Shown here: piece after piece, positions 5,833 to 45,662 of the stretch
Numbering within the stretch: the first letter of the stretch is position 1
Layout of the letters: each line of letters opens with the position of its first letter
Origin: Eubacterium sp.
Lineage (GTDB): Bacteria > Bacillota > Clostridia > Lachnospirales > Lachnospiraceae
Direction: 5' to 3'
Assembly (NCBI GenBank): GCA_017420535.1
Contig: JAFOIV010000068.1
Span: 7,541-71,540, forward strand
Length of the DNA stretch: 64,000 nt
Position numbers and translations under genes: made by a program
Notes under the pieces: model-generated
Told to the model about the DNA's origin: nothing
The model's input: the letters and a program-made list of their open reading frames with translations, nothing else
The model's database searches: none

Positions 5833-8193
5833 ATGGAGCATTATAAAGAACTTGGAAATAAATATTTCAGACAGAATAAAAAACGGAATATCTTTACGAT
5901 AGTATGTACAGCACTTGTTGTTATCTGTATATTTTCAATACTTAATATTACTTTTAACTGGGTAAGAAATTATAGAAAAGATGTAAGAGGATTTGCTGAT
6001 TATGAAATCCTTATAACTAACGTTGATAAGGAAAAAGCAAAAGAGATTATTGATCAAGAGTTTGTTGAATCTGGATATGTAGGTACTGAAATTACGGGAG
6101 TTAAAGATGATAGAGAACCAATTTTAGAGGATGCATTACATATTAATGTAAAGAATAAATTGCTTATCAACTATTATAGAGATAAGCTTACAAAAGAATA
6201 CGGTGTTAATGCAGAGGTAAATGAAGACCTTGTATGGACATACGGTCAGGATATCGCGCATGAAGGTAATATCATCGTATTACTTGCTGTAATAGTCTCA
6301 TATATCATAACGATAATTGGAGTCGGATACATAAGAAACAGTATGCAATTATCGGCAATTGAAAGAATTAAAGATTATGGAAATTTAAGATGTATAGGCG
6401 CTACTAAAAAAGAGATAAAACAGATCATATTACATGAAGCTTTTATGATCGAAACCATAGGAATTACTATTGGATGTGTTTTAGCATTTGTTTTCAGTTC
6501 TCTGATCAGTTTTAGAAGAGGATATCCAGTTGGTTTTAATTTTCTTCCATTTATAATTGTATTTGCTGAGTTCTATTTTGATCTTTTCTTTATCGTAAGA
6601 GAAAGAATGAAATATATTATAAATCTTTCACCAGTGGAAGCATTAAGTGCAAATATCAAGATAAAGCAGAGCAGACTTAAAAAAAGAGATAGTGGAATAT
6701 GGAAGTTATTATTTGGAATTGAGGGGGATTATGCATATAAGAATTTAAAGAGAAATAATAAAAGAACTTTGAAAACAACATTATCCATAATGTTTGGATT
6801 GGTGGTTATTGTGACTGTAGGAGGCCTTGTTAATGGGTTTCTTAAATACATGAAATTGGTCAATTCACAGTTTGGATATTATCAGGATTATATAATTCCT
6901 AGTAAATATTATAGTTACGTAAGTTTTGAAGAAATAAAATCTTATCTTCCATCAAAGGATAATATGGAAGTGATCAAAAATACAAATGGTATTGGAGAAG
7001 TGAAATATGTTTATGATAATAATATTCTATTAAAACAAAAATCAGATTTATTAAAACATATAAATAAAGAATATTTAAATGAAACCCGCTCCGAATTTGA
7101 TATTCTTAGGAGCCTTGATAAGATTAATGATCCTGACGCTGGAGAATGGTATGAAAGAGTTTATAATCTTTTAGATTTTCAGATTTATGCGTATGATGAA
7201 AATGATTTTAAAAGAAATGAGGAATACCTTATAGATGGAACCTTGGATATATCAGAAAATGGAGTGATCCTGGTTAATTATGGATTGTGTGAAAATCATA
7301 ACAGTTATTATTATGATGGACTTCTTCCTGAAGTGAAAAATTACACATTTACTGATTATAAGGTAGGGGATGAAATAGAAATAGTTGATCCGGTTATCCT
7401 AAGAAACAGAATTGCAGAAGAAGTAAAAGTTGAGGATCAGGAAATTGGTTATCCTGATTACTCGCAGTCTATATCAAATGTGGTTGAGGAATTAAGAGCA
7501 AAGGGATATACAAAGAAACTGGTTATAGAAGGGATTGTGGAGAAAGACGCAAATATTTTTTCTGATGAACCTAAGTTTTTAACAACCACAGACAATTATT
7601 TTAAACTGTTTAAGTGTAATGCTAATGATTATTCTGGATTTATGGTTCATGTAGATAATTGCTTTAATTCGGGATTATCAAAGTTAGATATAGATTACGA
7701 AGGTGATGGTGAAGGGATTGACAGGTACTATTTCAGTTCTTTTATGTCAGGTTATTTTTCTACGGTTCCGGAGATTATAGATAATGTTTTAAAAATAGTT
7801 TCTTTTATAAGTGTTGTTTTTATATTTATATTAATTAATGTTATTAACTCCATAATCATAACAAGAAGTAATCTGCGTATCAGGACAAATGAAATGGCTC
7901 AGTTAAGAGCACTTGGCATGACTAAAAAAAGCTTATATAAAACGGTTATGTTGGAGGGCTTTATAGTTTGGTTTAGAGCTTCACTTATTGGAATTCCTTT
8001 AGGAATATTGGTTCAGCTTTGGCTTTATAATAATATACTTGAATATGTATTTTACATTAAATTTTCTATTGCTATATGGGCTATAGTTTTAGGATTGGTT
8101 TTATCAGCTTTAGCATATATTTATTCTAATTATAAATATGTAAAGAATATGAGGCTTGATGTAGCAAAAGAATTATCATGTGATTCTATTTGA
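5833..8193 (+). CDS. large FtsX-family ABC permease with duplicated TM-ectodomain-3TM architecture
   Basis: Two hydrophobic FtsX-like blocks (about aa 140-260 and 650-780), each preceded by a single TM and a soluble loop. The second loop is ~300 aa. Lies directly downstream of the ATPase gene. Confidence 0.8.
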   Translation: MEHYKELGNKYFRQNKKRNIFTIVCTALVVICIFSILNITFNWVRNYRKDVRGFADYEILITNVDKEKAKEIIDQEFVESGYVGTEITGVKDDREPILEDALHINVKNKLLINYYRDKLTKEYGVNAEVNEDLVWTYGQDIAHEGNIIVLLAVIVSYIITIIGVGYIRNSMQLSAIERIKDYGNLRCIGATKKEIKQIILHEAFMIETIGITIGCVLAFVFSSLISFRRGYPVGFNFLPFIIVFAEFYFDLFFIVRERMKYIINLSPVEALSANIKIKQSRLKKRDSGIWKLLFGIEGDYAYKNLKRNNKRTLKTTLSIMFGLVVIVTVGGLVNGFLKYMKLVNSQFGYYQDYIIPSKYYSYVSFEEIKSYLPSKDNMEVIKNTNGIGEVKYVYDNNILLKQKSDLLKHINKEYLNETRSEFDILRSLDKINDPDAGEWYERVYNLLDFQIYAYDENDFKRNEEYLIDGTLDISENGVILVNYGLCENHNSYYYDGLLPEVKNYTFTDYKVGDEIEIVDPVILRNRIAEEVKVEDQEIGYPDYSQSISNVVEELRAKGYTKKLVIEGIVEKDANIFSDEPKFLTTTDNYFKLFKCNANDYSGFMVHVDNCFNSGLSKLDIDYEGDGEGIDRYYFSSFMSGYFSTVPEIIDNVLKIVSFISVVFIFILINVINSIIITRSNLRIRTNEMAQLRALGMTKKSLYKTVMLEGFIVWFRASLIGIPLGILVQLWLYNNILEYVFYIKFSIAIWAIVLGLVLSALAYIYSNYKYVKNMRLDVAKELSCDSI

Positions 8194-35097: not shown

Positions 35098-35139
35098 AAG
35101 GACAGTATTGATTTTTTAATATTGTCCTTTTTTATTTTG
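35098..35139 (+). terminator. rho-independent terminator after galE
   Basis: Stem aaggacagtatt / aatattgtcctt (one G-U pair) followed by TTTTATTTT. Confidence 0.65.
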
Positions 35140-35194
35140 GCTTACTGTGATAACATTAATACGTTGCTAAATATATAATTATAAGGTGATTTTT

Positions 35195-36058
35195 ATGATG
35201 ACTGACAGAAGATATAGACAGAGAAAATTATTATTTTTTTATACAGTATTCACTTTGGTCATATTGACCATCATTTGTATTTTTATCATTTTTTCAACTT
35301 CTGATAAGAAAAAATATAGAAATGCTGGAGTAGAGGCTTTTAAGGCAGGAAAATATGAGGAAGCCATTAAGAATTTTGATAAAGCTTTATCAGAAAAGCA
35401 GTGGTTTGCTGAAAAGCTTAACTTAGATTCAAAATACTATAAAGCAGCATCATATATGAGACTTAACAGATATAGTGATGCCTATGCCATATACCAGGAA
35501 CTGGAGAAAAACGATAATAAATATCTTAACAAAGATGCCCTTAATGGACTTTTAGATCTTTCTAAGACTCTTATGGATACAACAGATGAGAGATTTGGAT
35601 ATACTGACGCAGATGTAGACAAACTTCAGAAATTTGCTGAGTCTGGAAATACTAAGATGTATCTTTATCTTGCTTCAATTTATGAAAAGAATAATGATCT
35701 GGATAAAATGAAAGAGGCTGTAGAAGCTTATATTGAAAAAGAGAAGCCGACTACATATACATCATACCTTCTTTCATCCTATTATCTTGAGAAAGATGAT
35801 ATTGATTCTGCCAGAAAATGTATAGAGACGGGACTTTCATGTCGAGATAATCTTTATGTGGATCTTTTAAGGTTTAATGAAGCTGTTTGTTATGAAAAAG
35901 AAAAAGATTATGAAACAGCTTTTGCGAAAATATCTGAACTTCATAACCAGTATCCGGATAACAAAGAGTTTTTAAAGGAATATAATATTCTTTTATCAAG
36001 GGTAAAACCTGATACCCAGTTCGTTCATACATCATCTGATGCAGATTATTTTGATTAA
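35195..36058 (+). CDS. membrane-anchored TPR-repeat protein
   Basis: N-terminal TM (LLFFYTVFTLVILTIICIFIIF), then TPR-like A/Y-rich helical repeats. The ATG at 35195 is preferred, with the RBS aaggtg. Confidence 0.6.
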   Translation: MMTDRRYRQRKLLFFYTVFTLVILTIICIFIIFSTSDKKKYRNAGVEAFKAGKYEEAIKNFDKALSEKQWFAEKLNLDSKYYKAASYMRLNRYSDAYAIYQELEKNDNKYLNKDALNGLLDLSKTLMDTTDERFGYTDADVDKLQKFAESGNTKMYLYLASIYEKNNDLDKMKEAVEAYIEKEKPTTYTSYLLSSYYLEKDDIDSARKCIETGLSCRDNLYVDLLRFNEAVCYEKEKDYETAFAKISELHNQYPDNKEFLKEYNILLSRVKPDTQFVHTSSDADYFD

Positions 36059-36078: not shown

Positions 36079-37479
36079 ATGAGATTACCACAGTTATTTA
36101 TTGATAATATGACTAAGCTTTGGGGAGAAGAAGATTTTAAATCCTATGAAGAAGCTTTAGCCGAACCAATGCAGCACGCTCTTCGTGTTAATACAAAGAA
36201 AATATCCGTTGAGGATTTTTTAGCTATATCTCCATTTGAACTTAGTCCGATTCCCTGGTGTCCAAATGGCTTTTATTATGATGATAAGATTTATCAGCCT
36301 TCAAAACATCCTTATTATTATGCGGGTTTATACTATCTTCAGGAACCATCTGCAACATTTCCTGCGGCAACACTTCCTATTGTTCCGGGGGACAGGGTGC
36401 TGGATATATGTGCGGCTCCGGGGGGTAAATCAACTGAGATAATGTGCCGTTTAAAGGGTGAAGGGCTTTTGGTATCAAATGATATCAGTGCATCTAGAGC
36501 TAAAGCACTTCTTAAAAATCTGGAGGTTTTTGGTTCTACTAATTCACTTATTACCTGTGAGAGTCCTGAAAATCTCTCTAAGCATTTTGGATGTTATTTT
36601 GATAAGATAATCATTGATGCTCCTTGCTCCGGAGAAGGCATGTTTAGAAAATCTCAGTCTATGATCAATGCCTGGGAGCAGAATGGCAATGAGTTATTTA
36701 AGAATATTCAGATCTCAATATTAAATGAAGTTGTTAAGATGATAAGGCCAGGTGGAATGATCCTTTATTCTACCTGTACTTTTTCGCCTCTTGAGGATGA
36801 GCAGAGTGTTGAATATCTTCTTTCTCTTGACCCTGCACTTGAAATTGTGGATTGTCCTTATTTTGAGGGCTTTGTAAAGGGACGACCTGATTGGGGGAAT
36901 ACAGATAATCCTGATCTTGGAAAAACAGTTCATCTTTATCCTCACAAGATAAAAGGTGAAGGGCATTATGCGGCACTGATCAAAAAGAAGACTTTAGAAG
37001 AATGTGAAACAGTTCATAACACTTCAGCTCTTGTTTCAGATATGATGGTAAGGACTCCTAAGCTTTCTCTTGAGATAGAAGAGTTTTTAGCTCATATCAG
37101 TAATAAATATGACAGATCACGTTTTGTCTTAAAGAATGATAAGCTTTTTTATATGGATAAAGGATTTCCGGATGTATCAGGGCTTCGCACCCTTAGATGC
37201 GGACTTCTTATGGGAGAGCAAAAGAAGAACAGATTTGAACCTTCTCAGGCTCTTGCCATGACACTTGATGGGGCTTCATTTGATAATAGTCTTAAACTTA
37301 AAGTAGATGACGAAAGAGTTGTGAAATATCTTAAGGGTGAGACTCTTGAAATTACTAAGGAAGACCAGGTAAATGACGGATGGGTTCTTGTATGCATAGA
37401 TTCATATCCTCTTGGATTTGGTAAGCTGAAGAATAATACCCTTAAAAATAAATATCTTCCTGGATGGAGAATGATGTGA
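36079..37479 (+). CDS. RsmB/RsmF-family rRNA (cytosine-C5) methyltransferase
   Basis: SAM motif CAAPGGKS, catalytic DAPCSGEGM and YSTCT, and a C-terminal PUA-like extension. Confidence 0.8.
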   Translation: MRLPQLFIDNMTKLWGEEDFKSYEEALAEPMQHALRVNTKKISVEDFLAISPFELSPIPWCPNGFYYDDKIYQPSKHPYYYAGLYYLQEPSATFPAATLPIVPGDRVLDICAAPGGKSTEIMCRLKGEGLLVSNDISASRAKALLKNLEVFGSTNSLITCESPENLSKHFGCYFDKIIIDAPCSGEGMFRKSQSMINAWEQNGNELFKNIQISILNEVVKMIRPGGMILYSTCTFSPLEDEQSVEYLLSLDPALEIVDCPYFEGFVKGRPDWGNTDNPDLGKTVHLYPHKIKGEGHYAALIKKKTLEECETVHNTSALVSDMMVRTPKLSLEIEEFLAHISNKYDRSRFVLKNDKLFYMDKGFPDVSGLRTLRCGLLMGEQKKNRFEPSQALAMTLDGASFDNSLKLKVDDERVVKYLKGETLEITKEDQVNDGWVLVCIDSYPLGFGKLKNNTLKNKYLPGWRMM

Positions 37480-37481
37480 TT

Positions 37482-38054
37482 ATGAAATTGTTCAATCTTG
37501 ATAAAGGCGAATTTGGATACGCAAAACGTTATAAGAATAGACAGATATTATTTATGTTTTTATTATTTCTATTTATCCTTAGTGATGTTTTAGTAAGTAT
37601 TTTATATTTTAATACTAGAAAGACCTGGCTTATTATCATTGCCTGTGTTTTAAGTATTCCTTTCGCCAGAAATTTTGTTAATTATCTTCTTATCATTAAA
37701 GCAAAGCCTTTAAATGATAAAGAACATAAGATAGCGGATGAACTTAGTGAGAAACATGGATTTATCATGGCTTATGACATTTCAGTAACTGACAGCGAGG
37801 GACTGTTGTTTTATCCTTGCCTTACAGTGTATAACAATAATGTCATAGCTTACGTTAATGATCTTTCCAGTAAGGAAAAGAAGTATACAGATTATCTTAA
37901 AAAATGTTACCAGGAAGGACTTAAACCAAGAGTTGCAGTTGTGGATAGTTTTGAAAAATTTGAGAAAGAAATCGAAAGACTTAATCCACCGAAAGATGCT
38001 CAGAGAAAACAGGATCTTCTTATTGCAAAGAAGCTTCTTACTCTTGGCTTATAA
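37482..38054 (+). CDS. hypothetical two-TM membrane protein
   Basis: ORF with two N-terminal hydrophobic helices and no recognisable motifs. The ATG at 37482 lies just after the upstream stop. Confidence 0.5.
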   Translation: MKLFNLDKGEFGYAKRYKNRQILFMFLLFLFILSDVLVSILYFNTRKTWLIIIACVLSIPFARNFVNYLLIIKAKPLNDKEHKIADELSEKHGFIMAYDISVTDSEGLLFYPCLTVYNNNVIAYVNDLSSKEKKYTDYLKKCYQEGLKPRVAVVDSFEKFEKEIERLNPPKDAQRKQDLLIAKKLLTLGL

Positions 38055-39110: not shown

Positions 39111-42100
39111 ATGAATGAAGAAATATGGGAAATTCTTGGAATTGAAAAGACTAAAGACGAAGAAGCTATTATAAATGCCTATAGAGCTAAGGTAGTCACT
39201 GTTAATCCTGAAGATGATCAGGAAGGATTTATGAAGCTTAGAGCAGCTTTTGAAGCTGCAAGAGAATATGCCGCAAAAGGTGATGAAGAAGAAAATAGTG
39301 AAGAAGATTCAGTAAGATATAATGATAATGACGAGATCGATAGGGCCATTAAGGAACATATCAGTAAGTTAGACGCTATCTACTGTGATATGAACACCAG
39401 ATTAGATACTTCTATCTGGAAAGAATGGCTTAATGCGGATATCTGTAAGAATATTGACAGTGTAGATTCTATGGCAGAAGCTATGCTGGTTTTTTTGATG
39501 CGAAATAATTTTCTTCCTTTTGAAATCTGGCAGATGATCGCTGAAACTTTTGATTTTTTCAATAATAAGGATCATATCCTTAAGAAATTTAGAAGTGATT
39601 ATATTGAGTTTATTCAGATCCATTGTACTAAGGATGACTGCGGGGATTATCAGGATTATGTAGAAAGAGATGTATATTTAGATCTTTTCTCTGATATCAT
39701 TTCTGAAATATCTGTATATAGAGAAAAACAGCTCTATACCCCTGTGAATTATTTCTTTAAAGATGATGAATATATTAATAATATGCAGAATATCCAAGGG
39801 TATTTTAATTCCTATTTTGATAATTATCTTTATTATGAAAAGACTAAAGATCAGGAATATAAGGATGGTATGGAGACCTGCCTTACTTATATTTCTAATA
39901 TTCTTGAAATATGCGATAAATCATCTTTATTTATTCCGGTGGAACTGGGAGCTAGAATACTTTACCTTGAATTAGAGGGAAAATTTGATCTTTCTTTACG
40001 TCTTTCAATGGCAGTTTTTGATCGTTGGAAAGATGTTCATTTTTATGCAACGAATAATGCCATTAAGATAATTCTTAAAAATATTGATAAGATTGAAGAT
40101 AAAGATGAGATTGTAAAGAAGATCATAGAAAAGGTTGAAAAGATAGAAGAACTTCATCCTGATTATGTTTCTACTAAAAAGGTAAGATTTGCTCTTCTTA
40201 TGCTGGATAAAAAATATAAAGAAGCAGAAGAAAAGATTAAAGAAGTTCTTAATGTAAATAATAACGATCTTGAAGCGGTTATCTTATTCAGGATCGTTAC
40301 AGCCAAAGAGACAGAGGCATTTAAAGAGGCGTTAAAAGAAGGAAATGTTTCTGATAAAGAAAAAATGGATGCTGTCTGGAGGTATTATCAGAATTTAGAC
40401 ATTGACAATGCTCTTAATCTGTTAAAGAAGATAGTTCCAAATCCAGAGATTTTTTTTGATTATAATAAGCTTTTTGGTATCTGCTATAGTGAGAAAAAAC
40501 AATTTGGCTATGCTGAACCTTATCTCAAAAAGTGGGTAGAACTTCATGAAGAACTTCTTTCAAAGAAAGATTCATTAAATGAGGAAGATCTAAAGAGAAT
40601 AAAAAATGTCAGCGCCTGTTATTCCCGATATGGCATTTGCCTTTATGAGACAGGAAAACCTGAAGAAGCTGAAAAGTATTTTACCAAGGATCTTAAATTT
40701 GAAAATGTTGAAGATAAACTTAGATATAGAGAGTCATATGGTACCTTCCTTGTAAAGAGCAATAGATTTAATGATGCAATGAAGGTTTGGGATGAGCTTA
40801 TAAATGAGCCTACCCTTTCTCTAGTGGGCTATATTCACAGGCAGGAAACAGCTTATAAGATGAAAAAAGCCCAGCTTGTTATTGATGATTATTATGAAAT
40901 ACTTAACAGATATAAAAGATATTCCAAAGCGTATTATTATGCGGCGTCAGTTTTCTGTATCTACGAGCAGTATGAGGAAGCTGATAAAATCATAAAAACA
41001 GCCGAAGAAAATAATGTAAATACAGATCTTATCAGTCTTATTAAGGCCCGACTTCTTTATTTAACTGAAAAAGAGCATGAATACGACAAGAATATTGGAG
41101 AATTATATGAGGAAATTTTTAATAATATTGAGTTAAGTAAAAAGAATGATGATTATAATTCTGATGCTGAAGATGAGCTTCTCACAGTCTATGGAGATGC
41201 TGCTGATTATTACCTTCAGGTTGTGGATGAACACGGTGCTTTTTCTAAACTTGATCTTGCTGAAAAATACATTGAGAAGGGATGTGAATTAGAGCCTTTT
41301 GCCTGGAGATTTCTGTATCAGGATGTAGTCCTCGCAAAAAATAAAGGATTGGATGCAGATGACAGTTATAAAAATCTGATAGATGCCTTTAGGGATTATC
41401 CAAAGCCTTATTATTTATATGCTGAATATTTAAATGACAGAAATAATAAAAAAGAAGCTCTTAAAATGTATGAGAAAGTGTATGATTTAGATCCGGAATA
41501 TCCGGAGATAAATAACAGACTTATGCATTGTTATATGGAAAAGTATTCTGATTCACGTAAAAAGAGAGATAAGTTATTTTATAATAGAGCAGTTGAACAT
41601 GCTACAAAACAGATAGAATTAGATCCAGATGCATATTACTATCTTGAAAGAGGATGGGTTTATTTTGGTGCCGGAGATTTTGATCTTGCTATTAGAGATG
41701 CTCTTCATTGTATTGATGAGGAACCTGAAAATGGTTATGCATATAATCTCCTTGGTAAGGCTTATTATGATAAAAAGGAATATGATAATTCCATCGCTGC
41801 TCTTGAAAAAGCAATAGAACTCCTTCGTGATAAAAAAAATTTTGCTGCATATAATAATATAGTAAAGGCTTTAGAAACTGTCGGAAGGTATGATGAAGCA
41901 TTAAAATATCTTGATCAAAAAGCTGAGAAATTTAATACAAAGAAAAATGATAGAAATATTTATCTTAGACTTTATAAAAAGAATAATGACAAAGCAAAGG
42001 TTTTGGACATTACTGATCTGATAATAATCGATGTTTTAAACGAAGATGGTTATAAAAATTATAATGCTGAACATGTTATAAGTAGTTTTATTACGGTCAT

Positions 42101-42794
42101 TGATACCTTCATCATGTATAATGACATAAATGCTGTTAAGCTTTACGAGAAAAACATGATGAAATATTTAAAGAAAATCGACTTTAGTATTGACGGAAAA
42201 CATAGAGGTATTGATTCAAAATTAAAGTGTAAGATAGATAATGATACTGTTTTAAATCTGCTTGATAATCTTGGCCGTTTCTATCTGTTTGAGAAGAGAG
42301 ATTATAAGAGTGCCATAAAGTGTTTTGAGTCATGGCTTAATTTGGATGATAAGAAGAAAATCAGGACCAATAGAAGAGCGGTAATCTATAAAAATTTATC
42401 CCAGGCTCTTTATAGAAGGGGCAAACATAATGAAGGAAATGTAATTGCACGACTTGCTTTGGATGATATATTGGAGGTATATTCGGATTATTCTCGATAT
42501 ATAAATGATCCAGAAGAAGCGCCTTTTAGATTAAATGTTTTGGCCAAACTCCTTTATTTTGCCAACAAAAAGAATGAGGCGTATGATCTTCTTTTAAAAG
42601 TAGATAATTGTATTTGTTGTGATTTCTGTCATTGTAAAAGATGCTATGATAAATTACTAGTCCTTGCGGATTTCTCTGAATTTGAAGGACGTACAGAAGA
42701 AGCAATAAGTTACCTTAAAGATGCATTAGAGATTGCACCGGATGATTCAGAGATCAGACCATCCCTTAGGCATCTTGGAGTAAAAGATATATAA
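39111..42794 (+). CDS. giant J-like-domain / TPR-repeat protein (1227 aa) with a C-terminal Cys cluster
   Basis: The N-terminus IWEILGIEKTKDEEAIINAYRAKVVTVNPEDDQEGFMKLRAAFEAA follows the J-domain helix I-III pattern, but NPE replaces HPD. Many TPR-like repeats follow. CICCDFCHCKRC lies at nt 42609-42644. Confidence 0.65.
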   Translation: MNEEIWEILGIEKTKDEEAIINAYRAKVVTVNPEDDQEGFMKLRAAFEAAREYAAKGDEEENSEEDSVRYNDNDEIDRAIKEHISKLDAIYCDMNTRLDTSIWKEWLNADICKNIDSVDSMAEAMLVFLMRNNFLPFEIWQMIAETFDFFNNKDHILKKFRSDYIEFIQIHCTKDDCGDYQDYVERDVYLDLFSDIISEISVYREKQLYTPVNYFFKDDEYINNMQNIQGYFNSYFDNYLYYEKTKDQEYKDGMETCLTYISNILEICDKSSLFIPVELGARILYLELEGKFDLSLRLSMAVFDRWKDVHFYATNNAIKIILKNIDKIEDKDEIVKKIIEKVEKIEELHPDYVSTKKVRFALLMLDKKYKEAEEKIKEVLNVNNNDLEAVILFRIVTAKETEAFKEALKEGNVSDKEKMDAVWRYYQNLDIDNALNLLKKIVPNPEIFFDYNKLFGICYSEKKQFGYAEPYLKKWVELHEELLSKKDSLNEEDLKRIKNVSACYSRYGICLYETGKPEEAEKYFTKDLKFENVEDKLRYRESYGTFLVKSNRFNDAMKVWDELINEPTLSLVGYIHRQETAYKMKKAQLVIDDYYEILNRYKRYSKAYYYAASVFCIYEQYEEADKIIKTAEENNVNTDLISLIKARLLYLTEKEHEYDKNIGELYEEIFNNIELSKKNDDYNSDAEDELLTVYGDAADYYLQVVDEHGAFSKLDLAEKYIEKGCELEPFAWRFLYQDVVLAKNKGLDADDSYKNLIDAFRDYPKPYYLYAEYLNDRNNKKEALKMYEKVYDLDPEYPEINNRLMHCYMEKYSDSRKKRDKLFYNRAVEHATKQIELDPDAYYYLERGWVYFGAGDFDLAIRDALHCIDEEPENGYAYNLLGKAYYDKKEYDNSIAALEKAIELLRDKKNFAAYNNIVKALETVGRYDEALKYLDQKAEKFNTKKNDRNIYLRLYKKNNDKAKVLDITDLIIIDVLNEDGYKNYNAEHVISSFITVIDTFIMYNDINAVKLYEKNMMKYLKKIDFSIDGKHRGIDSKLKCKIDNDTVLNLLDNLGRFYLFEKRDYKSAIKCFESWLNLDDKKKIRTNRRAVIYKNLSQALYRRGKHNEGNVIARLALDDILEVYSDYSRYINDPEEAPFRLNVLAKLLYFANKKNEAYDLLLKVDNCICCDFCHCKRCYDKLLVLADFSEFEGRTEEAISYLKDALEIAPDDSEIRPSLRHLGVKDI

Positions 42795-42818
42795 ATTTTT
42801 AGATTTGGAGAAGAAATA

Positions 42819-44504
42819 ATGATAGTCGGAATTGATTTAGGAACAACTAACAGCTTAGTGGCGTATTATACAGATGATGGTCCGAAAGTTATTCCAAACA
42901 GACTTGGGGAAAATCTGACTCCATCAGTTGTTAGTATTGATGAAGAAGGAACAGTGTATGTAGGTAAGACAGCTCAGGAAAGACTTAGACTTTATCCAGA
43001 GTCCAGTGCGGCTGTATTTAAGAGAAATATGGGAACTCAAAAAGTTTATAAGCTTGGTAATAAGGAGTTTACAGCAGAAGAGCTTTCGAGCCTTGTTATC
43101 CGTTCTCTTAAAGAAGATGCAGAAGTTTTCCTTGGAGAAGAGGTTACTGAAGCAGTTATAAGTGTTCCTGCATATTTCAATGACATGAGAAGAAAAGCGA
43201 CTAAAAGAGCCGGGGAACTGGCTGGTTTAAAAGTTGAAAGAATCATCAATGAACCTACTGCAGCAGCCATTGCCCATGGGCTTTATAATGAGACTAAAAG
43301 ATCAAAGAATCTTGTTTTTGACCTGGGAGGAGGAACATTTGATATCTCTATCCTGGATTATTTTGATCCGATACTTGAGGTTAGAGGTGTTGCAGGAGAC
43401 AATTATCTCGGAGGAGAAGACTTTACAGAAAAGATTGAAGAGATCTTTTTAACAAAGAATAGTGATATCGATAAAGAGTCTTTAACAGCAAGAGAACAGG
43501 CTCTTCTTTGGAAGGCCTGCGATGAAGCTAAAAAAGACATTTCTGATAAAGATAAAGTAAATGTTAAGGTTGTTATCAAAGAAAAAGAACATACAGCTGA
43601 GATATCATTTTCTGAATATGAAAGAGCATTAGAAGAGCTTTATGACAGAATCAGGATTCCTCTTAAAAAGGCCCTTTCAGATGCTAAGATTTCTATTTCT
43701 GATATTGATAAGGTGGTACTGGTAGGTGGTGCCACTAAGTATGCAGGAATCAGATCTTTTGTAGTTAAAACATTCCATAAGTTCCCGGATACTTCTATCA
43801 ATCCTGATGAGGCTGTTGCCCTTGGAGCTGCTATTGAAGGCGGAATGAAGGAAAGAGCTAAATCTATAAAAGAAGTTATCCTTACGGATGTATGTCCATT
43901 TACCCTTGGTACTGAGGTGGTAGTAGACACTGAGTTAGGTATTAAAGAGAGTGGTGTTTTCTGTCCTATTCTTGAAAGAAATACCATCATCCCTGCCAGC
44001 CGTACAAAAACTTTCTATACATCAAGAGATAATCAGGAAATGATAGATATCCGTGTCCTTCAGGGTGAAAGCAGGATCGCAGATAATAATCTTGAGCTTG
44101 GAATTCTTTCTTTAAATGTTCCAAAGGCTAAAGCTGGCGTGGAATCAGTAGAAGTTACTTATACTTACGATATAAACTCTATCCTTGAAGTTGAAGTTAA
44201 GGTTAATTCTACTGGAGTTAAGAAGAGACAGATCATCAAAGGTCAGTATATTGAGATGACTGATGAAGAAATTGATGCAAGATTTAAAGAACTGGCTTAT
44301 CTTAAGGTTTTACCTCGTGATTGGGAAGAAAATAAACTTATCATGCTTAAAGCTGAGAGAATCTATGCCGAACTTCTTGGTCAGGATAGAGAATTTGTAG
44401 GAATTAGTATTGATAAATTCAGAGCAGTTTTAGATACCCAGGATAAAGATAAGATCAATGAGGAAAGAAAGAAACTTGAAAATGTTCTTTCTCAGTATGA
44501 ATAA
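42819..44504 (+). CDS. Hsp70-family chaperone, short HscC-like form (561 aa)
   Basis: [27 protein letters not shown] and [11 protein letters not shown] motifs. A substrate-binding beta domain is present but the C-terminal helical lid is short. Confidence 0.85.
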
Positions 44505-45558: not shown

Positions 45559-45621
45559 ATAGGTGAGCTCCTGCATAATATTATGCGGATCTTATATACA
45601 TTTTATAATCATCTTTCTTCG

Positions 45622-45662
45622 GACCTTTGGTATTATTCCCAGATACCAAAGGTCTTTTTTAT
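45622..45662 (+). terminator. rho-independent terminator
   Basis: Stem gacctttggtat / ataccaaaggtc followed by TTTTTT. Confidence 0.7.

Follow-up and report, generated by a model that had tools for sequence, protein, structure and literature searches.

An HscC-type Hsp70 and a giant tetratricopeptide repeat J-protein with an Asn-Pro-Glu triad form a two-gene cassette in Clostridia

Introduction

The specialized Hsp70 HscC of Escherichia coli and its J-proteins DjlC (YbeV) and DjlB (YbeS) form a chaperone system that was reportedly described by Kluck et al. in 2002, and their genes lie in the locus ybeQ-ybeR-djlB-ybeT-ybeU-djlC-hscC. Here, we analyze a related gene pair of Eubacterium sp. (family Lachnospiraceae), found in a stretch of 64,000 nucleotides (nt) of contig JAFOIV010000068.1 (assembly GCA_017420535.1, positions 7,541 to 71,540), which we call the window throughout. 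The pair is a two-gene operon that encodes a specialized HscC-type Hsp70 and its own giant J-protein (referred to below as the partner), in which the His-Pro-Asp (HPD) triad of canonical J-domains is replaced by Asn-Pro-Glu (NPE). Our analysis indicates that the locus is probably a dedicated HscC-type Hsp70 machine with a J-domain that works without the "essential" histidine.

HscC proteins are described as 550-580 amino acids (aa) long, with a deleted GrpE-signature loop, 4-8 aa inserted into loop L1,2, about nine residues deleted in helix B of the lid, and a short C-terminal tail, and the cognate DjlC-type J-protein, but not DnaJ, stimulates HscC ATPase (PMC8215388). According to a 2026 review, DjlB and DjlC read HPE, which is "the only replacement tolerated" in the HPD motif, and the meaning of other deviations is "enigmatic" (PMC13254874). 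A 2023 census placed HPE in about 1% of J-domains; it dropped sequences without a full HPD and analyzed HPE and other variants apart, and its available part contains no NPE form (PMC10410713). Our literature search retrieved no paper combining J-domain, NPE, and HPD. The second domain of DjlB/C is already defined in Pfam 38.1, and the NCBI product name for the family is simply "tetratricopeptide repeat protein." The HscC-DjlB/C system, HPE, and the second domain are therefore known; what we add is a census blind to the J-domain, repeated His/Asn switching, a missing membrane anchor, a core of three cysteines, orphan paralogues, and a negative covariation test.

The window pair resembles the E. 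coli system in several ways. The window Hsp70 shares with E. coli HscC its length class, its indels, its clade, the lack of a GrpE signature, and 43% of its residues, and the genes for the J-protein and the Hsp70 are neighbors in both species. Like DjlB and DjlC, the partner begins with a short three-helix J-domain carrying the pattern x-P-E-x-D-x-[EQ]-G-F, which is followed by the DjlB/C second domain. Unlike them, it reads NPE instead of HPE, is 1227 aa long instead of 475-483 aa, and has a long tetratricopeptide repeat (TPR) scaffold and a C-x2-C-x4-C motif but no C-terminal membrane anchor. A preliminary description of this DNA had singled out the partner as unusual, which holds for its size and TPR scaffold, whereas its N-terminal part of about 215 aa is the same two-domain module as in DjlB/C. 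The window gene order is J-protein and then Hsp70. Moreover, no DUF1266 or Sel1 genes stand beside the window pair, whereas the hscC locus of E. coli K-12 includes such genes separately, namely ybeQ and ybeT (Sel1 repeats, TPR-like) and ybeR and ybeU (DUF1266). Similarity of the partner to YbeU (0.4% probability) or to YbeQ (15% probability, generic repeat similarity only) was considered and rejected.

Pam16 works by pairing with a true J-domain protein, Pam18. As in Pam16/Tim16, the type IV J-like proteins that provide the best structural match of the partner, the J fold of the partner carries a replaced triad, which is DKE or DKS in Pam16 (PMC13254874). Unlike Pam16, the partner keeps the Pro and Glu of the triad within an invariant loop, has a private Hsp70, and is linked to no second J-protein. 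The eukaryotic proteins DNAJC7 and DNAJC3, which are far shorter, have a C-terminal canonical HPD J-domain and serve general Hsp70s. They are like the partner in uniting TPRs and a J-domain in one Hsp70-recruiting polypeptide (for DNAJC7, as stated in an abstract), and DNAJC3 chain 2y4t is among the matches of our family profile; beyond these generic domains, we saw no specific homology between either protein and the partner. HscA-HscB likewise combines a specialized bacterial Hsp70 with its own J-protein and does not require GrpE (PMC8215388). However, HscA groups with DnaK in our tree, HscB has an HPD triad, and the two are encoded in the isc operon, whereas the window locus is devoid of isc genes.

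Results

The Hsp70

The downstream protein is an HscC-family Hsp70. In a BLASTP comparison, its match to E. coli K-12 HscC ran end to end over 563 columns (43% identity, E 5e-159). Identity to the DnaK of its own genome, a true DnaK encoded on contig C8 next to dnaJ and the sole grpE, was about 40% and confined to aa 2-502. Its 561 aa compare with 556 aa in E. coli HscC and fall within the HscC length class of 550-580 aa. An alignment with E. coli DnaK, HscA, and HscC revealed that the window protein and E. coli HscC have in common a 6-column gap in the GrpE-signature region (about residues 285-295 of DnaK), the linker EVILTD, and an 11-column gap in lid helix B. They also share an insertion at the same site of loop L1,2 in the beta part of the substrate-binding domain (SBD-beta), which measures 6 aa in E. 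coli HscC and 9-10 aa in the window protein, the latter exceeding the range of 4-8 aa quoted for HscCs. Like E. coli HscC, the window protein lacks a C-terminal tail and ends at about DnaK residue 595. In an IQ-TREE phylogeny of 25 Hsp70s, a branch with 100/100 support separates E. coli HscC and 21 clostridial rows from DnaK/HscA (3 rows); E. coli HscC forms a long branch, and its exact place inside the HscC clade is unsure.

These results bear out the preliminary description as regards both the HscC-like character of the protein and its intact nucleotide-binding motifs, the Pfam HSP70 match scoring 411.8 bits and reaching profile position 570 of 599. The same description had called the protein lidless. 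Since the alignment with DnaK continues to about residue 595 and includes the HscC-type indels, such as the gap in helix B, the helical lid is instead present but trimmed. No NCBIfam model exceeded its cut-off for either protein of the pair.

The J-domain and second domain of the partner

The upstream gene encodes a member of the DjlB/DjlC co-chaperone family with a minimal three-helix J-domain. As a single sequence, the partner did not reach the Pfam DnaJ (PF00226) cut-off of 27.8 bits, scoring 17.0 bits with the full protein and 20.6 bits with aa 1-300; E. coli DjlC (19.3 bits) and DjlB (21.1 bits) were also below it. At the family level, 61 of 64 N-termini matched Pfam DnaJ at E <= 0.01, and the family profile matched the J-domain of E. 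coli DnaJ in the PDB with E values of 2e-4 to 5e-4 (5nro_B, E 5e-4). An hhalign comparison of the 64 N-termini with E. coli DjlC gave a probability of 98.6% (E 7e-16, 133 columns) and covered the J-domain plus the start of the next domain, reaching column 137-139; the full-length family alignment matched DjlC with 98.3% probability. In addition, precomputed Pfam annotation assigns PF27158 (DjlB_C_2nd, "DjlB/C second domain") to the window protein and to all 72 homologues found by a search with partner aa 1-210.

The AlphaFold2 (AF2) model of aa 1-300 has a mean predicted local distance difference test score (pLDDT) of 92.7. Its three J-domain helices (Table 1) are followed by a disordered acidic linker (61-67), a helical domain (75-195), and TPR-like hairpins from residue 217. 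Among 48,161 chains compared by VIA-align, the best match was 2guz_B, chain B of the Tim14-Tim16 complex (Z 8.1, root-mean-square deviation 1.9 A, 59 residues), and the next were 2ys8, 1faf, and 2yua, all titled J or DnaJ domains (Z 6.1-6.5, residues 1-59/69). A Foldseek search of the PDB with this model gave nothing at E <= 0.001. For the second domain, VIA-align returned only middling matches (9la9_A, Z 6.7; 3l6a_A, Z 6.2) and no clear solved fold.

The J-domain proposed at the outset is thus recovered both by family profile and by fold. The preliminary description had further assumed a canonical HPD in E. coli DjlB and DjlC, and had read NPE as degenerate at both the His and the Asp position relative to those partners. 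The gene translations contradict this, as DjlB and DjlC both read HPETDPQGF, i.e., HPE. Since the E. coli proteins already have HPE, only the exchange of His for Asn is special in the window partner. Compared with DnaJ, the DjlB/C-type J-domain has six loop residues fewer after the triad and no helix IV.

Conservation of the NPE triad and His/Asn switching

The J-loop N-P-E-D-D..E-G-F is under strong constraint. An alignment of 64 N-termini, on average about 30% identical, shows no variation at N32, P33, E34, D35, E38, G39, and F40, and NPE was found in 72/72 homologues retrieved with aa 1-210. The genome also encodes a 1251-aa paralogue on contig C96 that is 46% identical to the partner and has the same VVTVNPEDDQEGFMKLR loop. 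Because a bias toward the motif was possible, we built a profile from the linker, the second domain, and the first hairpins, leaving out the J-domain, and searched 1.84 billion representative proteins with it. This search returned at least 629 proteins at E <= 1e-30, and among the best 150 of them the triad is NPE in 123, HPE in 26, SPE in 1, and HPD in none. The comparison of orthologues suggested in the preliminary description therefore identifies NPE as the conserved state. As many gut and rumen Clostridia retain it, NPE counts as a selected feature and not as decay.

The first residue of the triad has switched repeatedly. In a FastTree phylogeny built from 154 N-terminal fragments, with E. 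coli DjlB/C as the root, at least 16 changes of the H/N/S state are required, and 11-12 of them are forced by branches with Shimodaira-Hasegawa (SH)-like support >=95. The change from CAY to AAY takes one base. Moreover, an NPE protein is the best full-length BLAST hit for 6 of the 26 HPE proteins (e.g., 54% identity over 831 aa), and an HPE protein is the best full-length BLAST hit for 16 of the 123 NPE proteins. HPE-type pairs are also present in the same phylum, as in genome G338, where each of two HscC genes has an HPE partner.

Gene order differs between the two types. The Hsp70 gene precedes the J-protein gene in 25 of 27 HPE-type metagenome pairs (L113-L186), whose partners are 288-1213 aa long, while NPE-type pairs nearly always have the J-protein gene first.

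Linkage and distribution of the pair

The pair is inherited as a unit. Homologues of the partner, together with HscC orthologues (51-72% identity), are encoded by all 24 genomes of the genus; the two are adjacent by coordinates in 22 of them and lie on separate contigs in the other two. By contrast, 16 genomes of other families in the order were without both, yielding weak TPR matches in three cases and best Hsp70s that were DnaK-like (37-41%). Two subtypes can be distinguished within the genus, one with a partner of about 1190-1310 aa and an HscC of 67-72% identity, and another with a partner of about 1010-1060 aa and an HscC of 51-56% identity, and some genomes have both. For example, two complete cassettes occur in G011, G012, and G014. 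In the first, the HscC is about 67% identical to that of the window and its partner measures about 1230 aa; in the second, the partner of about 1030 aa shares only aa 4-200 strongly and is accompanied by an HscC of 51-56% identity.

Several genomes have extra partner copies without a neighboring HscC. The orphan paralogue of the window's own genome, located outside the window (G000:C96:29734-33420; locus L009:7672-11427), has no Hsp70 beside it. A transglutaminase-like gene of 306 aa lies upstream of it and open reading frames (ORFs) of 133 and 321 aa lie downstream, and these neighbors are common only to a near-identical relative (L025).

To survey a wider range, we scanned contigs at one genome per species with an NPE-motif seed. 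A relative of the partner is encoded in at least 598 places, from which 80 loci were kept; they include Lachnospiraceae, Eubacterium, Tissierella, Diplocloster, Hungatella, Defluviitaleaceae, Fusibacter, Gracilibacteraceae, and others. Cultured strains are represented by Tissierella, Diplocloster, Lachnotalea, and Lachnospiraceae bacterium NE2001. An HscC orthologue (53-95% identity) is present in 71 of the 80 loci: within <=200 nt downstream of the partner in 66, further downstream in 3 (one a split ORF), and upstream in 2. Four further loci stop at a contig edge, and 5 have no HscC within the flanks. Clustering of the ORFs in the 80 loci yielded these two genes only and no third conserved gene, since the next four clusters were antisense ORFs inside the two genes and the next real cluster occurred in 14 loci. 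The flanks of the window pair are common only to L022 and L023. The spread of the family is patchy, with 3 of 401 evenly sampled genomes of the phylum and none of three other genera of the same family containing it; pattern matches in four of the phylum genomes (G362, G381, G210, and G345) were discarded as chance matches in unrelated or non-coding sequence.

Collectively, the co-occurrence in 24/24 genus genomes and 71/80 wider loci corroborates the private pairing that the preliminary description had proposed. Three findings had been named there as able to overturn its reading, and on all three the outcome is favorable: the J-domain is recognized by profile, the genes co-occur, and NPE is conserved.

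The TPR scaffold and the cysteine motif

Pfam TPR families match the partner at aa 780-940 and 1182-1216, with 15 TPR-clan families over their cut-offs. The family profile matches TPR proteins of the PDB at profile positions of about 490-1007, the best being a consensus TPR (E 4.7e-120), and it also matches the TPRs of OGT (E 1.6e-64). More than 1000 aa of TPR-like repeats had been suggested originally. Sequence evidence shows TPR character at about aa 490-1010 and at 1182-1216, and model and profile show it at aa 217-300, but this does not extend to every part of the roughly 1000 aa.

A similar correction applies to the dense Cys/His cluster noted near the C terminus. The string CICCDFCHCKRC is present, but only three of its cysteines are conserved, namely C1170 (59 of 60 sequences), C1173 (60/60), and C1178 (60/60), while C1167 is found in 21/60. 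The partner is soluble, as its highest Kyte-Doolittle value over 19 residues is 1.07 and thus indicates no membrane anchor; the corresponding maxima are 1.99 at residue 464 in E. coli DjlC and 2.39 at residue 450 in DjlB. Pairwise identity is 0.54 for the J-domain, 0.35 for the second domain, 0.23-0.26 for the TPR part, and 0.65 for HscC.

The J-binding site on HscC

Contacts between DnaK and the HPD motif were taken from published work (PMC8215388), and the equivalents of the contacting DnaK residues were inspected in 51 HscC orthologues. Those of R167 and P419 are conserved in 51/51, and those of L391 and Q378 in 49/51 each, so that the J-site on the HscC side is intact. Two J-interface positions of the window HscC, aa 144 and 340, carry unusual residues. 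The equivalent of N170 is Ser in 62 and Asn in 5 of 67 NPE-paired HscCs, and Asn in 26, Ser in 3, and unread in 1 of 30 HPE-paired HscCs. Although this raw table looks strong, the HscC tree offers only two independent contrasts, and in them the residue does not differ; the pattern is thus a lineage signal that lends no support to coevolution of the position with the H/N state of the partner.

Discussion

We propose that the pair operates as a dedicated Hsp70 machine in the following manner. The TPR scaffold would select or hold a client or an assembly, and the J-domain would dock at the interface of the HscC nucleotide-binding domain (NBD), linker, and SBD-beta. In this position, Glu34 may reach the invariant Arg141 (DnaK R167) and Pro33 may pack on Pro392 (DnaK P419), while the side-chain amide of Asn32 would replace the hydrogen bond of His to the linker backbone at Leu355 (DnaK L391). 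Docking would then lead to the hydrolysis of ATP and to client capture, and nucleotide exchange is expected to be spontaneous and GrpE-independent, since HscC is without the GrpE signature and the single grpE of the genome lies beside dnaK. The unlinked partner paralogues, including the one on C96, probably feed the same HscC in trans. A more general proposition, for and against which we see the chances as evenly balanced, is that His is dispensable in the HscC branch, with Asn and His being interchangeable, the trigger residing on the Pro-Glu-Asp-Asp...Glu-Gly-Phe loop, and one HscC serving several giant, fast-evolving TPR adaptors. If so, the Hsp70 cycle of hundreds of Clostridia would function although the J-domain has no HPD, and HscC with its adaptors would constitute a small bacterial "one Hsp70, many J-adaptors" network that handles clients of its own.

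Several points weigh against the dedicated-machine reading. In the structural comparison, the J-domain was closest to chain B of the Tim14-Tim16 complex, which, from its residue numbering, we take to be the HPD-less Tim16. The window HscC has Glu at the Q378 equivalent, which is unique among the 51 orthologues, and Asn, not Ser, at the N170 equivalent. No covariation of HscC with the H/N state of the partner was detected, in a comparison limited to two independent contrasts in which the residue is the same. For some of the NPE counts, the motif itself had served as all or part of the search seed. Evidence of expression consists of one metatranscriptome contig of 402 nt, equal to positions 42050-42451 with one mismatch, in each of two runs of one study, for which DNA carry-over is possible; other metatranscriptome pieces of 18-31 nt were rejected as chance matches, and gaps in the coverage carry no weight. 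In addition, replacement of His by Gln abolishes stimulation in every J-domain tested (PMC8215388, PMC13254874).

The last point also bears on what we rank as the main rival explanation, in which the NPE domain is a pseudo-J-domain (type IV) that binds or tethers HscC and does not trigger ATP hydrolysis, and the TPR protein acts like Pam16 on Pam18, holding HscC in position or in check as its scaffold or regulator. We regard this as unlikely. The killing effect of His-to-Gln in every tested system (PMC8215388, PMC13254874) favors it, as do the top structural match (2guz_B, Z 8.1), Pfam DnaJ scores of 17.0-20.6 bits against a cut-off of 27.8, and the absence of helix IV. However, E. coli DjlB and DjlC have the same low Pfam scores, the same short loop, and no helix IV, and DjlC nonetheless stimulates HscC ATPase (PMC8215388). 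A pseudo-J-domain would also leave the question of where stimulation comes from, as no canonical HPD J-protein alongside the pair could supply it, and it would have to accommodate an invariant P-E-D-D..EGF loop facing an invariant R167 equivalent on HscC. Furthermore, NPE and HPE alternate between close relatives, which is hard to explain if one is active and the other dead.

Two further explanations carry much less weight. The preliminary description had included conflict systems among the possible roles, which would make the Hsp70 and TPR pair a defense module that senses or counters phages or mobile elements. The variable genomic contexts of the two-gene cassette, the fast evolution of the TPR part (23-26% pairwise identity vs 65% for HscC), and the presence of more than one partner paralogue in several genomes are features one might expect of such a module. 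Yet neither protein matched any PADLOC-DB 2.0 family at E <= 0.01, no match was found in 50,697 phage records, and the three matches among 72,556 plasmids were all on large replicons. The pair is in 24/24 genus genomes, it stands in the window amid the housekeeping genes rsmF, pseudouridine synthase, recU, miaB, mutS, and mutL, and Pfam detects no nuclease, protease, or other effector domain in it. A defense role is thus highly improbable. As for strain-specific decay, i.e., NPE as a recent, non-functional mutation of HPD or HPE, its sole argument is the departure from the textbook motif. We consider it refuted and give it practically no credence, in view of the identical NPE in the 46%-identical paralogue of the same genome, its presence in 72/72 homologues and in 123 of the best 150 proteins of the J-domain-free profile, and the intact frames of both genes.

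With dedicated chaperoning as the preferred reading, the family amounts to a natural experiment, in which a constrained J-domain and a private Hsp70 with an intact J-site have undergone repeated His/Asn flips. It therefore bears on whether His is truly needed for the ATPase trigger. Moreover, in cultivable anaerobes of the gut and rumen, the soluble TPR partners are convenient baits for HscC clients, which would open up the function of HscC.

Features of the locus and its surroundings

The features of the pair are compiled in Table 1. Two adjacent genes on the same strand, 24 nt apart, and an N terminus with a J-like string and an NPE triad are as initially described, and the translations confirm that both reading frames are intact.

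Table 1. Positions of the gene pair and its parts within the window
Feature	Position (nt)	Strand	Basis
Partner gene, 1227-aa DjlB/C-family J-protein with TPR scaffold	39111..42794	+	ORF and translation
Alternative GTG start of the partner gene	39099	+	ORF listing
J-domain, aa 1-58; helices 2-9, 17-30, 37-55; no helix IV	39111..39284	+	AF2 model, VIA-align, family profile
Asn32-Pro33-Glu34 codons (AAT CCT GAA) at the HPD-triad site	39204..39212	+	Sequence
DjlB/C second domain (PF27158 DjlB_C_2nd), about aa 75-215	39333..39755	+	Precomputed Pfam, hhalign vs DjlC, AF2
Helical-repeat/TPR scaffold, aa 216-1227	39756..42791	+	Pfam TPR families, profile vs PDB TPR proteins
Cys-rich string CICCDFCHCKRC, aa 1167-1178	42609-42644	+	Translation
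C1170-x2-C1173-x4-C1178 motif, then [YFH][ED]; within CICCDFCHCKRC	42618..42644	+	Alignment, n=60
Intergenic spacer, 24 nt	42795..42818	+	ORF coordinates
HscC-type Hsp70 gene, 561 aa: NBD, linker EVILTD aa 352-357, SBD-beta, shortened helical lid	42819..44504	+	ORF, BLASTP, alignment, tree

A string resembling a ribosome-binding site (taggtggtg) precedes the ATG of the partner gene at 39111. The GC content is about 0.30-0.39 over 30-52 kb, with no break at the pair. On the 5' side, the same strand carries, in order, galK, an epimerase gene, a gene for a 290-aa TPR protein, rsmF, a 196-aa ORF, and a pseudouridine synthase gene, and on the 3' side recU, a gene for a LysM protein, miaB, mutS, and mutL follow in this order. 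The only strong terminator-like hairpins between 34.8 and 45.8 kb are located at 35098-35129 and 45621-45655, so that one transcript may span the pair and its neighbors from rsmF to recU.

Among these neighbors, the 290-aa TPR protein (35186-36058), encoded upstream of rsmF and separate from the partner, is kept in L022. The 196-aa ORF (37464-38054) overlaps the end of rsmF by 16 nt and is kept in both L022 and L023; it has no Pfam or NCBIfam match.

A different arrangement was seen outside the genus, where two Hsp70-like ORFs, one of about 550 aa and the other of about 700 aa, lie side by side and each match the window HscC with 30-36% identity. This double-Hsp70 pair is present in 9 of the 16 non-genus genomes, e.g., at G031:C141:2768-4195 and 6336-7763, and also on G029:C19, G036:C10, G032:C20, G034:C131, G038:C103, G028:C12, G039:C64, and G027:C25.

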